Source of the DNA: a virus
Virus record (IMG/VR): IMGVR_UViG_3300027779_000018
Span: 17,952 to 81,951 of that record
Length of the DNA stretch: 64,000 bases
Reading direction: 5' to 3' (one strand)
Shown here: piece by piece, positions 6,419-41,096 of the stretch
Layout: each line of letters begins with the position of its first letter
How positions within the stretch are numbered: the first letter of the stretch is position 1
Position numbers and translations under genes: made by a program
The notes under the pieces: generated by a model
Seen by the model: only the letters and a program-made list of their open reading frames with translations
Database searches by the model: none
Told to the model about the DNA's origin: nothing

Positions 6419-6603
6419 TATACACTCTCCATTTTCAGTTTTGTGATTGCACTTCGTAGTTTTGCTTCCTTACGAGGACTAGCCGGCAGTGATATCCCTC
6501 TATTTTGTCCTATTAGAGGGATGCGATCATCCTCTATAGCCCATATCTCTGAAACCATCTCAGTCCGTTCTTCTTTTGTCATCTCATTCCACTCTTTCAT
6601 CAT
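6418..6603 (-). CDS. hypothetical early protein
   Basis: Directly downstream of a strong leftward promoter. Confidence 0.65.
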   Translation of the reverse strand: MMKEWNEMTKEERTEMVSEIWAIEDDRIPLIGQNRGISLPASPRKEAKLRSAITKLKMESV

Positions 6604-6630
6604 CTTTCTCTCATTATTTAATATACAAGT

Positions 6631-6660
6631 ATTATATCAGAAATGTGGGGTCATTGTCAA
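6631..6660 (-). promoter_or_regulatory. early sigma70-type promoter (leftward)
   Basis: TTGACA(ATG)-18-TATAAT on the minus strand. Confidence 0.8.
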
Positions 6661-6798
6661 CACTTTTCTGCACCTATATTCGTTTTCTTTGCACACTTAT
6701 CTGCACCACGCAGCGCTTTGAGTTTCCCACGGAGAATGTATGCTTCATTGTCGGGTCTTTGTTCCTGAAACCCTTACCACCACTGGGTTTCAGAGCGG

Positions 6799-6828
6799 TT
6801 GACAATGGGTCACACTTTATGTTATACT
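6799..6828 (+). promoter_or_regulatory. early sigma70-type promoter (rightward, reading into the DnaA boxes)
   Basis: TTGACA(ATG)-18-TATACT with extended TG. Confidence 0.8.
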
Positions 6829-6965
6829 ATGTATATAATGGAGATTAAGCGAATGATATAGAGTGACGGCGGTGCGAGGCAATGTCGATACCTCACTGTA
6901 TAGACTGCAAGAGTCTGAATTTTTGGAAACACTACTAGTGTCTCTGAGATTTCTTTGAGCTAAAG

Positions 6966-7012
6966 TTATCCACAGAGTTATCCACAAAAAGTTATCCACA
7001 GAGTTATCCACA
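6966..7012 (+). repeat. four tandem consensus DnaA boxes (TTATCCACA)
   Basis: Exact TTATCCACA at 6966, 6978, 6992 and 7004, all in the same orientation and intergenic. Confidence 0.9.
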
Positions 7013-7143
7013 GGCGCCCCTCGGTTGGCGTATCACCTGTGGCCACAGCTTAAACTGAGTCGGCCTGGTATGAAAATCGAATGAGCGCTCCCTTGATACA
7101 CCTAGTGTACAGGGTACGTCAAACGGTGTCGCAGAAATAACAC

Positions 7144-7173
7144 TTGACAATGCCTCCGATAAACTGTTATACT
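7144..7173 (+). promoter_or_regulatory. early promoter
   Basis: TTGACA(ATG)-18-TATACT. Confidence 0.8.
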
Positions 7174-7179
7174 ATAGGT

Positions 7180-7413
7180 ATGATAAAGAATCAAGAAAAT
7201 AAATTGATCGCGACCCACCTTGCCACAGGTCAGTCTGTAGAGATAGACCTCACTGACAAAGAGATGGTGTATGCAACCTGTAAGGACGTGTGCATCAACG
7301 AGTGCTGGGACTTCTTAGACAGCCTAGTGGACAACAGGACAGGGATTAAGATCATCGATGAATTGCAGATAGACTTCATCGTGGTTAACGGAATTAAAAA
7401 GGTTTTCCACTAG
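7180..7413 (+). CDS. hypothetical early protein (probably leaderless)
   Basis: ATG 6 nt after the -10 box; no SD. Confidence 0.7.
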   Translation: MIKNQENKLIATHLATGQSVEIDLTDKEMVYATCKDVCINECWDFLDSLVDNRTGIKIIDELQIDFIVVNGIKKVFH

Positions 7414-7444
7414 ACACACAGACCTCACCATGGTATAATAACTG

Positions 7445-7564
7445 TATGGTTTAAAGAAATGAATCAAAGGCAATACTAGAGTGCCTATGAAAGTCTAGTA
7501 GGGTGACGGCCGAACGTCATTAAGTTCTGATAGAGCAGAGGGGTTATGAGAGTGACCCCCCTTT
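7445..7564 (+). ncRNA. candidate structured small RNA (pseudoknot plus hairpins)
   Basis: Own promoter TAGACA-17-TATAAT (7411-7439); no ORF; paired segments; terminal GC hairpin. Confidence 0.55.
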
Positions 7565-7590
7565 ACTGTTAGATAAGGATATGATATAAT

Positions 7591-7788
7591 ATGAAGACAA
7601 ACGTAATTGGAGCAGAACGGTGGACTACTGTAGATGTATACAGTATACCAAAGGACTCTACGCGTATGGCAGGAGCATCGATGCTAGAGCGTCGCACTAA
7701 GACCCCTGTAAGCCTCTCTGAGGGACTTGCAGTGTGTCAAGAGTACGAGGGTCAGGGTCATGTCGTAGAGCTCCGTAGAGTGACGTAG
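7591..7788 (+). CDS. hypothetical protein
   Basis: 65-aa ORF with TAAGGA upstream. Confidence 0.55.
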   Translation: MKTNVIGAERWTTVDVYSIPKDSTRMAGASMLERRTKTPVSLSEGLAVCQEYEGQGHVVELRRVT

Positions 7789-7929
7789 AGAGAGAGCGTC
7801 TTAAAACAGTGCTGTGGGACTCCTAGACTCTTTTAGAAGCGACCTAGACCCCCACCCTAATTGTATTCAAAGATTATTCTAAGTGATATCAAAAAATTTC
7901 TCAGGTAAAAATTATGACTAAAAACAAAA

Positions 7930-8085
7930 ATGAATAATTCAGAGCAATGGAAAAAGAACTCCGATGAATGGGTCAAGACCATGGAAGCATCAAGAATTAA
8001 AAAAGAAGAATACAACAAGTATCGTATCACCACGAAGAACCCATTATCCTACAGAGATTGGTTGGCCATGGGAGAAATATCATGA
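7930..8085 (+). CDS. 51-aa hypothetical protein
   Basis: MNNSEQWKKNSDEWVK...; ATGA overlap with the next gene. Confidence 0.55.
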   Translation: MNNSEQWKKNSDEWVKTMEASRIKKEEYNKYRITTKNPLSYRDWLAMGEIS

Positions 8086-8357
8086 GTCACAGTGCAATGT
8101 TTAAAGCAATGAATCGAGAGAAGTCTGCATGGATTCTTAAATGGGTCGCAAGTGTATGTCTAGTGATAGGAATGAGTGTTCGTGCAAGTGGTATACCCGA
8201 ACTCGCTATATTTGATTTAACATTTTCCTTCGTGGGTATATGTGGTTGGTTGACGGTGAGTATTATATGGAATGACCGTGCATTGATATTATTAAATGCA
8301 ACTGGGTTTCTGATTTTATTGACTGGTTTAATTAAATACTTTTTCGTGGGAGTCTAA
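8082..8357 (+). CDS. small three-TM membrane protein
   Basis: WILKWVAS...GWLTVSIIWNDRALILLN hydrophobic pattern. Confidence 0.75.
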   Translation: MSHSAMFKAMNREKSAWILKWVASVCLVIGMSVRASGIPELAIFDLTFSFVGICGWLTVSIIWNDRALILLNATGFLILLTGLIKYFFVGV

Positions 8358-39224: not shown

Positions 39225-41096
39225 ATGGCAATTAAAAGTTCACAAATAAACGTAACCGATTTAGATTTTGATGATATAGCAACTAATTTAAAAGGGTTTC
39301 TACAAGGACAAACCCAGTTAAAGGATTACGATTTTGAAGGTTCAACCATGTCAGTATTGGTTGACCTACTTGCATATGCATCACACATTAGTGCAGTCAA
39401 TACTAATATCGCAGGAAGTGAATTGTTCTTGGATTCTGCTCAGATCAGAAAGAATGTAGTTTCTCGTGCAAAGGACTTGGGATTTATCCCTGCGTCTGAA
39501 ACAAGTGCAACTGCAATTGTAGATATAGCCATAAAGAATGTTAGGAATGCAGATGGAACTTACCCGACAGTTAGTGAAATGTCTCTTCTAAGAGGAAGTC
39601 AATTTAGAACAATATATGATGGGAACCAATATTTCTTTGTTGTTCCCAATACAGTAAAACCAATACAAAATGGTGGGACATATAATCTAACAAGTGTTCC
39701 ATTAGTACAAGGAACATATGCTTCGGATACATTTGTTTTTGACAACCAAGTTGGTAATCCAAAATTTGTATTATCCAACGAAAGGGTTGACAGATCAAGA
39801 TTAGAGATAGCCGTAAACTCAGGTGGGGTTTCAACAACTTATACACTATCTACTGATGTGTCAATGATTAAAACCACTTCAAAGGTTTATTACGCACAAG
39901 AGAATGAAGATGGGTTTGTTGAAATTTATTTTGGAGATGGTACACTAGGTGCATCTCTAGTAGATGGTGACATTATCGAAGCCACTTATGTTATTGTAGA
40001 TGATACCCATTGTAATGGAACAAAAACTTTTACACAGATAACAGCTGTTAATGGTTATACAGATTCAACAGTGACTATAAAACAAGCTGCAGAAGGTGGT
40101 ATAGAGAAAGAGTCCATTGAATCAATCAAATTTAAAGCAACAAAGTTCTATACATCTCAGAACAGACTGGTAACACTGAATGACTACAAAGCAAAGGTCA
40201 GTGAGTATTACCCGAATGCAGATGCAGTTGCAGTATGGGGTGGAGAAGATAATGACCCACCACAATACGGAAAAGTGTTTCTTGCAATCAAACCTCTAAA
40301 CTCAGATTATCTTTCAGACACAGAGAAGAAAAACATTACCTCTAAGTTAAAAAGTTTGAACATGTTAACAGTAAGGCCTGAGATAATTGATGCAGAGATA
40401 ATTAAAGTTCTTATATCCTCAACTTTTAAATACAACGAAAGAGGAACAACTTTATCAAAAGGTGAATTAGAATCATTGGTAACAACAACTATCAATAATT
40501 ATGATAACCTTAAGTTAACAAACTTTGATTCAATCTTTAGACACTCAAATTTAGTTAAAGACATTGATGAGGCTCATGGAGCAATCATGAGTAACACTAC
40601 TAACATTAGATTGAAAAAGAGTTTACCTGCGAAGACAGGACAACTCTTAAGTTACACTATACTCTTTGGAAATGGATTATACAATCCTAACTCAGGGTAC
40701 AATGCAACTAGTGGTGGTATAACAACCACAACAGGATTTTATGCACTTGGTGATGCAACCAATATCCATTACTTCGATGACGATGGTAATGGAAATTTGA
40801 GAAGGTATTACCTCTCAGGTGCAACAAGAATATATGTAGATAAGACAGCTGGAACAGTTGATTACACTACAGGAAAAATTTCGATTGAAAGCATCAGTTT
40901 TACTTCAACAGTAAATGCAGATGCAACAATTGACTTCACAATGATACCTCTCAGCAGTGATGTTGTTGCAACGCGAGGAATCTTAGTTGATATCTCGTCT
41001 GCTGATATAAAGGTAGCAGGTGAGATAGACACCATCGCAAGTGGTGAATCGAGTGCTGGTGTAGGGTTTAATTCTACATCGAACTCAACATATTAA
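39225..41096 (+). CDS. 6: gp6 baseplate wedge subunit
   Basis: LDFD.I..NL, DYDFEGS, FLDSA..R..VVS.AK.LG, QNR.VT..DY, WGGEDN.PP.YGKV. Confidence 0.95.
   Translation: MAIKSSQINVTDLDFDDIATNLKGFLQGQTQLKDYDFEGSTMSVLVDLLAYASHISAVNTNIAGSELFLDSAQIRKNVVSRAKDLGFIPASETSATAIVDIAIKNVRNADGTYPTVSEMSLLRGSQFRTIYDGNQYFFVVPNTVKPIQNGGTYNLTSVPLVQGTYASDTFVFDNQVGNPKFVLSNERVDRSRLEIAVNSGGVSTTYTLSTDVSMIKTTSKVYYAQENEDGFVEIYFGDGTLGASLVDGDIIEATYVIVDDTHCNGTKTFTQITAVNGYTDSTVTIKQAAEGGIEKESIESIKFKATKFYTSQNRLVTLNDYKAKVSEYYPNADAVAVWGGEDNDPPQYGKVFLAIKPLNSDYLSDTEKKNITSKLKSLNMLTVRPEIIDAEIIKVLISSTFKYNERGTTLSKGELESLVTTTINNYDNLKLTNFDSIFRHSNLVKDIDEAHGAIMSNTTNIRLKKSLPAKTGQLLSYTILFGNGLYNPNSGYNATSGGITTTTGFYALGDATNIHYFDDDGNGNLRRYYLSGATRIYVDKTAGTVDYTTGKISIESISFTSTVNADATIDFTMIPLSSDVVATRGILVDISSADIKVAGEIDTIASGESSAGVGFNSTSNSTY

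Follow-up and report, generated by a model that had tools for sequence, protein, structure and literature searches.

A pseudoknotted RNA domain of a probably new family behind an early-type promoter of uncultured marine T4-like phages

Introduction

The leader of the gene 32 messenger RNA of T-even phages contains a pseudoknot, in which two stems cross, loops 1 and 2 are very short and loop 3 is longer; it lies near the 5' end of a transcript of T4-like phages. The put RNA of phage HK022 and the nut RNA of lambda are structured RNAs behind early promoters, with co-oriented gene arrays downstream. Such antiterminator RNAs of lambdoid phages act through their fold. ToxI-type antitoxin RNAs are pseudoknotted small RNAs, and phages carry mimics of them. 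Rfam further holds orphan motifs of marine metagenomes and phages; they emerged from comparative analysis of intergenic regions, are supported by covariation and have no function assigned. We here describe an RNA element that shares traits with all these systems. It is encoded on the + strand at positions 7440-7567 of a 64,000-nucleotide (nt) stretch of viral DNA, called the window in what follows, which comprises bases 17952-81951 of the 81,951 bases of the IMG/VR record IMGVR_UViG_3300027779_000018.

The segment 7440-7567 (+) is, on balance, best regarded as the 5' domain of a new family of structured RNA. Its role may be that of a folded recognition module in an early transcript. The family is previously uncatalogued and of a familiar kind: a structured non-coding RNA motif of phages that is supported by covariation. 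An initial annotation, made from the letters of the sequence, had asked for a check with Infernal and Rfam. It was run and no family matched. In the entire window, Rfam 15 (4227 families) found nothing but a tRNA-Ala at the gathering threshold; with expectation values (E) up to 10, the region 6500-8000 yielded two chance rows of small nucleolar RNAs on the opposite strand. The loci of nine relatives yielded tRNAs only. Unlike the orphan motifs, the element and these nine loci are thus matched by none of the 4227 models, tRNA apart. A description of the element was not found in the literature either, as far as its accessible part goes.

The known systems also differ from the present one. No gene 32 follows here, and two additional conserved hairpins adjoin the pseudoknot. 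The likeness to put and nut is one of position, which would be compatible with a corresponding function; the present carrier is a T4-like lytic phage. Unlike ToxI, the RNA has no tandem repeats and no toxin gene, and it is present in a single copy.

The RNA domain

The domain begins behind a promoter that the initial annotation had placed at 7411-7439 and that is borne out (TAGACA, 17 nt, TGgTATAAT; 11 of 12 matches, with the TG extension). Transcription is predicted to start near 7446. As had been claimed, no sizeable open reading frame (ORF) follows: none of 25 or more amino acids (aa) starts on the + strand between 7440 and 7590, the next one being 7591-7788. The parts of the domain are:

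7411-7439, + strand: sigma-70-type promoter with extended -10 box; the same TGnTATAAT box precedes the element in relatives
7447-7466, + strand: 5' hairpin peculiar to this phage, from the minimum-energy fold and the alignment with L288, the nearest relative
7468-7472, + strand: 5' strand of the pseudoknot stem S1, AGGCA, from sequence, duplex energy and comparison with L288
7474-7480, + strand: 5' strand of stem P1 (S2 of the initial annotation), TACTAGA, from sequence and covariation
7482-7486, + strand: 3' strand of S1, TGCCT, inside the P1 loop, from sequence, energy and L288
7494-7500, + strand: 3' strand of P1, TCTAGTA, with a conserved AAG before it, from sequence and covariation
7501-7520, + strand: conserved GGG(U) junction and hairpin P2, which covaries in relatives
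7521-7539, + strand: clade-specific insert between P2 and P3, an insertion versus all other clades in the model alignment
7540-7559, + strand: hairpin P3 with a G-rich 5' strand, a C-rich 3' strand and a conserved AUGAGA (7546-7551) in the loop

The crossing stems AGGCA/TGCCT and TACTAGA/TCTAGTA of the initial annotation can be read directly, and its loops of 1 nt (7473), 1 nt (7481) and 7 nt (7487-7493) were confirmed. The words of the hairpins that it had listed behind them are all in place as well. GTGACG (7503-7508) pairs with CGTCAT (7515-7520) around the loop GCCGAA to form P2, and P3 reads GGGGTTAT-GAGA-GTGACCCC (7540-7559). The third pair of words, GTTCT (7524-7528) and AGAGC (7532-7536), was not accepted as a hairpin, because it is missing from the minimum-energy fold and is located inside the clade-specific insert, a stretch lacking in other clades. 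In the pairwise alignment with L288, a 21-nt stretch at the place of the 5' hairpin (7447-7466) is absent from the relative.

The fold is more stable than expected by chance. The 130 nt from 7446 reach -41.4 kcal/mol, versus -27.25 +/- 3.48 kcal/mol for 200 shuffles (z -4.07), none of which was as good. The S1 duplex of the window has -10.0 kcal/mol; when the 16-nt neighbourhoods of its two strands were shuffled, the value was -2.48 +/- 1.78 kcal/mol, and 0 of 500 shuffles were as low. Since both values lie beyond those of the shuffles, the observation is real and not due to chance.

Relatives of the element

The 65-aa ORF downstream of the element (7591-7788), used as a protein query in IMG/VR, found one relative, L002 (58% identity); the upstream ORF as a single-protein query found none. 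In L002 the order of features matches that of the window: a small ORF ending ...FH*, a promoter, about 150 nt without ORF, a second promoter and an ORF. The non-coding part shows little sequence likeness to that of the window; a 22-nt word after the ORF is identical. This word occurs exactly in 13 IMG/VR stretches, all of which have, 240-420 nt upstream of it, a TGnTATAAT promoter and then the same three hairpins. The exact 33-nt pseudoknot word and the 19-nt P2 word are found in no IMG/VR stretch.

A degenerate pattern derived from these loci, in which AGTC, GG.T, CCGAR and ATGAGA were fixed, was scanned across IMG/VR and metagenomes. In IMG/VR it hit 34 stretches, 27 with the full context and 7 that are chance matches in GC-rich coding sequence. 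The metagenomes contributed at least 117 stretches, which were kept only if P1 was 7/7 and the GC fraction below 0.5. Excluded were the 7 chance matches, the stretches that failed the filter and, after reading, L074, L081 and L151. At least 40 distinct versions of the domain are left in IMG/VR and metagenome contigs after filtering and reading; identical rows entered the counts once.

Two covariance models were built, R1 with the window and R2 without it. R2 picks out 7430-7567 of the window with 36.5 bits and an E of 2e-7; the next place in the 64 kb has an E of 0.65. The element is a single copy in the whole 82-kb record, and a 146-kb relative likewise has one strong copy (110.5 bits). R1 left 6 of 6 chance pattern loci unmatched, as well as the three stretches excluded after reading. 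That the loci are homologous is further supported by the flanking ORFs, which are homologous themselves, and by the promoter, which is found in the same place. A collection of bacterial and archaeal genomes held one true member, L261, among the 120 stretches listed; the other 119 were dropped. L261 lies on an 11.9-kb phage-like contig that was binned in a metagenome-assembled genome of the Sphingobacteriales; the contig is probably a phage fragment. It was not taken as a host assignment, which would conflict with the sigma-70-type promoters.

The pseudoknot

The H-type pseudoknot that had been claimed for the window is borne out by compensatory changes in L288 and by an equivalent helix in 29 plus 12 distinct relatives. 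L288 reads AGGTA-A-CACGATA-G-TACCT-GCGAAAG-TATCGTG, its counterpart in the window AGGCA-A-TACTAGA-G-TGCCT-ATGAAAG-TCTAGTA. Both share the 5-1-7-1-5-7-7 geometry. All 12 pairs are kept in both, with all 24 cells paired and none broken; one compensatory change concerns S1 (C-G to U-A) and three P1. The comparison is one of two sequences, with a weak shuffle control, in which 30 of 500 shuffles reach the observed value. As a rule, a loop of 1-2 nt can cross a stem of 6-7 base pairs (bp), and one of at least 3 nt crosses a stem of 5 bp; the window and L288, whose loops measure 1, 1 and 7 nt, agree with this steric rule for H-type pseudoknots. Further members of the window clade were seen at loose ends of RNA-library contigs; their P1 reads CACATGA/TCATGTG, and TACCT lies in a loop of 13 nt.

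In other clades the sequences differ entirely. The search for S1 there covered 16 nt on each side, namely those immediately upstream of P1 and those with which its loop begins. A helix between 5' flank and P1 loop is present in 29 of 29 distinct combinations, where it has at least 4 bp, and, in a set sampled independently of the search pattern (see below), in 12 of 12 distinct relatives. Compensatory changes are seen even between close relatives: TACGG/CCGTG versus TACAG/CTGTG, CACGG/CCGTG versus CACGA/TCGTG, and ACGGT/ACCGT versus ACGGC/GCCGT. At cluster level, cognate S1 strands pair with -8.71 kcal/mol versus -4.94 +/- 0.51 kcal/mol for mismatched ones, a value that 0 of 7286 derangements reached; in the independent set the cognate energy is -8.1 versus -4.39, with a mean z of -2.25. 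The compact textbook geometry is restricted to the window clade and a few others. In most clades of the family the crossing strands stand 4-7 nt from P1, which is a further difference from the gene 32 leader.

Covariation of the nested stems

The initial annotation had also proposed to look for covariation across homologues. This was done, and the pairings are kept with compensation. In a structure-free MAFFT alignment of 15 versions, the 7 pairs of P1 have 0 of 105 cells broken and 5 of the 7 are changed on both sides; P3 covaries too. The model alignment (40 sequences, 38 distinct rows, 17 pairs) has 96.0% of its cells paired versus 65.2% after shuffling, and a covariation score of 0.811 versus 0.226, which 0 of 500 shuffles reach. 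In slid controls, with the partners moved by 1-3 columns, the score falls to 0.04-0.17. P2 is rich in U-G pairs, which occupy 16 and 14 of 38 rows. They would be C-A mismatches on the opposite strand, and the + strand is thus the folding strand. A non-coding, structured and strand-specific RNA behind an early-type promoter, as first claimed, is supported by the missing ORF, the covariation and the U-G pairs.

As a control for ASCERTAINMENT, loci were also sampled through a conserved 3' element alone, which is described in the next section. It occurs in 56 IMG/VR stretches, 34 of them new loci. Of these new loci, 14 contain the 5' domain according to R2, at an E of 1.5e-11 or better (11 distinct rows). 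The other 20 comprise 5 whose sequence breaks off within 300 nt upstream of the word, 2 with divergent versions of the domain that can be recognised by eye (L288 and L317) and 13 of other context. In the 11 independent rows, 90.9% of the cells are paired versus 59.6% in shuffles, and 16 of the 17 pairs change on both sides. The covariation score is 0.839 versus 0.209 (0 of 500 shuffles), and all 7 pairs of P1 covary. Most of these rows, not all, retain CCGA in the P2 loop and AUGAGA in the P3 loop.

Extent of the transcript and the 3' element

According to the initial annotation, the domain would be a stand-alone small RNA of about 120 nt. The promoter of its own stands; a discrete end is doubtful, considering the lack of a conserved U-tract, the bridging RNA-library contigs and the 3' element. 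The features concerned are:

7560-7590, + strand: C/U-rich tail and second promoter-like site (TTTACT, 17 nt, TATAAT; 10 of 12 matches, TG present)
7591-7788, + strand: ORF of 65 aa, present in some clades only, related to the L002 product
7805-7857, + strand: conserved 3' element, consisting of AACAGT-N5-GGGACTCCTAG (7805-7826) and a C-rich box (7844-7857)

Compact relatives presumably have the 3' element on the same transcription unit as the RNA domain. In L032, L041, L048, L051, L055, L101, L131, L133, L137 and L149 it starts 83-89 nt after the P3 loop, and in these ten the interval from P3 to the 3' element lacks both an ORF and an evident promoter. About 55 nt beyond the 3' element, the compact relatives have an A/T hairpin with a T-run. 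In the window clade and in the clade of L002, L004, L005, L009, L015 and L024, the two modules are separated by a promoter and the 65-aa ORF; the ORF is absent in L003, L010, L014 and the compact loci of the L032 type. A consensus second promoter is seen at the matching place in L002, L004, L005, L009 and L015. In the window, the -10 box of the second promoter-like site (7562-7591) ends at 7590, one base before the ATG at 7591. From this promoter, the 65-aa ORF would hence be leaderless; otherwise it is translated from a longer transcript.

The domain is thus probably not a self-contained small RNA of 120 nt but belongs, as the promoter-proximal module, to a longer early transcript. This transcript would have about 300 nt in compact relatives and run through the 3' element to the A/T hairpin with its T-run. 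The two modules would have been parted by a promoter and the 65-aa ORF in the present phage and in one further clade.

The 3' element is more conserved than the neighbouring coding sequence. It is also found in quite different phage contexts, which argues for a separate module. RNAalifold on 30 sequences of it detected three invariant G-C pairs only and no covariation. By eye, the GGGU junction could be paired with the C-rich box, and G-rich with C-rich tracts; these pairings were inconsistent across clades and were dropped. The 3' element contains the word CUCC, which, we assume, resembles an anti-Shine-Dalgarno sequence. The P1 loop of L016 and L076 carries an additional hairpin that exposes GAGACTCCTATCG, which is nearly identical to the core of the 3' element.

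Parts of the region 7100-8000 are contained in six metatranscriptome runs, of which four were examined as contigs. A 471-nt contig (X15) equals 7428-7898, one of 360 nt (X16) 7427-7786 and one of 327 nt (X17) 7474-7800; a 252-nt contig (X18) corresponds to 7279-7530 with 2 differences and crosses the promoter. Contigs from three RNA libraries thus bridge the element and the next ORF. They demonstrate presence in RNA libraries, not a defined transcript. Uncovered parts, such as the upstream ORF in X16 and X17, and the contig ends at 7427/7428 and 7898 were not used as evidence.

A stand-alone early small RNA, reaching from about 7446 to P3 and acting in trans on host or phage targets, is therefore conceivable but unlikely. 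It would fit the strong promoter of the domain, the terminator-like score of P3 plus CCTTTACTGT in the window and the separate consensus promoter that many relatives have for the downstream gene just past the element. In most relatives, however, the tail after P3 is C-rich, not U-rich, without a conserved U-tract or terminator; the RNA-library contigs span element and ORF, and the compact relatives lack a second promoter before the 3' element. A peptide starting from the AUG in the P3 loop was also considered; it was rejected, as the short ORFs vary in length and sequence between relatives.

Mode of action and alternative explanations

The fold, its conservation, its position and its single copy are established by the above results: directly behind a sigma-70-type extended -10 promoter, and once per genome, the RNA forms an H-type pseudoknot by pairing of the 5' flank with the P1 loop, followed by the GGG(U) junction, P2 with its CCGA loop and P3 with its AUGAGA loop and C-rich 3' side. 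The stems covary freely and only a few loop and junction nucleotides are fixed, which would fit a domain that acts through its shape. We tentatively suggest, knowing that this may well be wrong, that the three-dimensional fold serves as a binding platform and sets the fate of the domain's own early transcript. Its partner would be a protein or the transcribing or translating machinery itself; read-through, stability or delivery of the 3' element would be altered in consequence. Antisense pairing is less likely as a mode of action.

More specifically, the domain might represent a novel type of RNA that acts in cis and reprograms host machinery working on the phage's early transcript, be it as a processive antiterminator similar to put and nut or as an aptamer of a new class that couples early gene expression to a host metabolite. 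We consider this a long shot worth naming. In either case the 3' element AACAGT-N5-GGGACTCCTAG would be the second functional module. We know of no antitermination RNA in T4-like marine phages.

A number of points weigh against our interpretation. The 16-nt limits of the S1 test were chosen after seeing where the helices fall; when the full P1 loop and 22 nt of flank were taken in, the S1 energy failed to separate cognate from other partners. Single-sequence p-values for S1 are often only 0.03-0.3, and the distance of 4-7 nt between its strands and P1 in most clades departs from the compact geometry. The invariance of AGTC, GG.T, CCGAR and ATGAGA in the 40-sequence set is partly circular, since they belong to the search pattern, and the independent set has exceptions at each of these positions. 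Alignments fitted to a model lean towards structure. Because P3 scores terminator-like in the window, a short RNA ending near 7565 is possible in this phage. Assembled contigs give neither ends nor strand nor level, and carry-over of DNA is possible. Two of them begin at 7427/7428, upstream of the start predicted near 7446; together with X18, which runs across the promoter, they make read-through from a promoter at 7144 possible. Of course, the mechanism is inference only, with partner, ligand and target all hypothetical.

A riboswitch leader, with the pseudoknotted part as aptamer and P3 or the next hairpin as expression platform, appears improbable. Covarying stems with fixed junction and loop nucleotides are the pattern of an aptamer, the position is promoter-proximal, and variable hairpins follow P3. 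What lies downstream varies, however, from a 65-aa ORF with its own promoter to non-coding sequence; no riboswitch class of Rfam matched, and no conserved terminator, anti-terminator or alternative that would sequester a Shine-Dalgarno sequence was recognised. Still far less is to be said for a small self-cleaving ribozyme. Its compact pseudoknotted fold and its few fixed loop and junction nucleotides would be suitable, but none of the ribozyme families of Rfam was matched between 6500 and 8000 even at E up to 10, and the RNA-library contigs run unbroken through the domain.

The initial annotation had mentioned two further possibilities, neither of which found support; we would be surprised by either. 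The first, an anti-defence decoy mimicking the antitoxin RNA of type III toxin-antitoxin systems, has the pseudoknot and the early promoter in its favour, yet there are no tandem repeats in 7000-8100 (minimum score 30), the model matches once per genome, Pfam and PADLOC reveal no ToxN-like or other defence-family neighbour, and the 120 stretches listed from the genome collection include no chromosomal bacterial counterpart. The second, an R-loop transcript that primes an origin, could be tied to four DnaA-box words 470-508 nt upstream in a promoter-dense region, but these are peculiar to this phage and lie upstream of the promoter and hence outside the transcript, a DnaA-box array near the RNA is found in 0 of 39 relatives (2 of the 39 hold one isolated box, 0.9-1.9 kb off), and compensatory stems and U-G pairs indicate a folded RNA.

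Carriers and genomic neighbourhood

CheckV estimates the completeness of the source record at 45%. The window contains T4-type structural genes, among them a homologue of the baseplate wedge protein gp6 (39225-41096), which shares 40% identity with that of Methylophilales phage Melnitz and 37-40% with those of the Pelagibacter phages Mosig and HTVC008M, which are filed under the family Kyanoviridae in their records. The carriers of the RNA domain are uncultured marine T4-like myoviruses with a gp6 about 40% identical to that of Melnitz, Mosig and HTVC008M. At the DNA level, blastn of the window region against 50,697 GenBank phages revealed no close cultured phage, and the regions of two relatives gave no match there either. 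In the whole records of the cultured relatives Melnitz-3, Mosig and HTVC008M, R2 indicates that the element is absent; the best place (E 0.035) sits within a coding region and was rejected.

Between 6600 and 7600 there are five near-consensus promoters, including the one at 7411-7439. The long downstream gene arrays are co-oriented, and gene orientation is mostly co-directional on both sides of the RNA, for which reason orientation was rejected as a marker of an operon head. Directly upstream lies a further conserved gene:

7180-7413, + strand: conserved small ORF of 77 aa, from the ATG at 7180, of a family ending ...NG..K.FH*

The stop codon of this ORF shares bases with the -35 box of the RNA promoter, and homologues of 72-88 aa are located directly upstream of the RNA in most relatives. 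L, W, G and the C-terminal FH are invariant in this protein family. AlphaFold2 predicts, with a predicted local distance difference test score of 90.3, the order strand-strand-helix-helix-strand-strand. The predicted fold has no match in the PDB at E<=0.001 and no usable one in the ESM Atlas; searches of Pfam, PHROG and PADLOC with the protein gave none. The 77-aa protein may be considered a candidate partner of the RNA.

Farther upstream, the roughly 300 nt (6829-7143) behind another strong promoter (6799-6828) contain no ORF of more than 31 aa, and an RNA-library contig equals 6862-7059. There may be another non-coding transcript here, running into the DnaA boxes. The latter are four perfect, co-oriented TTATCCACA words at 6966-7012, spaced by 12-14 nt.

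Some relatives deviate in their build. The same 19-nt insert, ACTACTATACAGTCGGGGA, is found in the P1 loop of L009 and 5' of P1 in L014, L086, L102 and L317; it may be a small mobile insert. L137 is a mosaic, with S1, P1 and P2 as in L004 and with P3 and everything downstream as in L131, which suggests recombination within the RNA gene.

Significance

In the ocean, the pelagiphage-related T4-like myoviruses rank among the most abundant viruses. To our knowledge, almost nothing is known about how such phages control early gene expression, and none of the carriers of the present RNA is in culture. Here, dozens of such phages have a well-supported pseudoknotted domain in a constant position downstream of an early promoter, and it shows up in metatranscriptome assemblies. 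It offers a concrete handle for in vitro transcription, structure probing, pull-downs and read-through assays, and the analysis supplies a seed alignment and a covariance model for a new RNA family. The family also illustrates modular evolution of a non-coding transcript, whose two conserved RNA modules have been separated by the insertion of a promoter and a small ORF.

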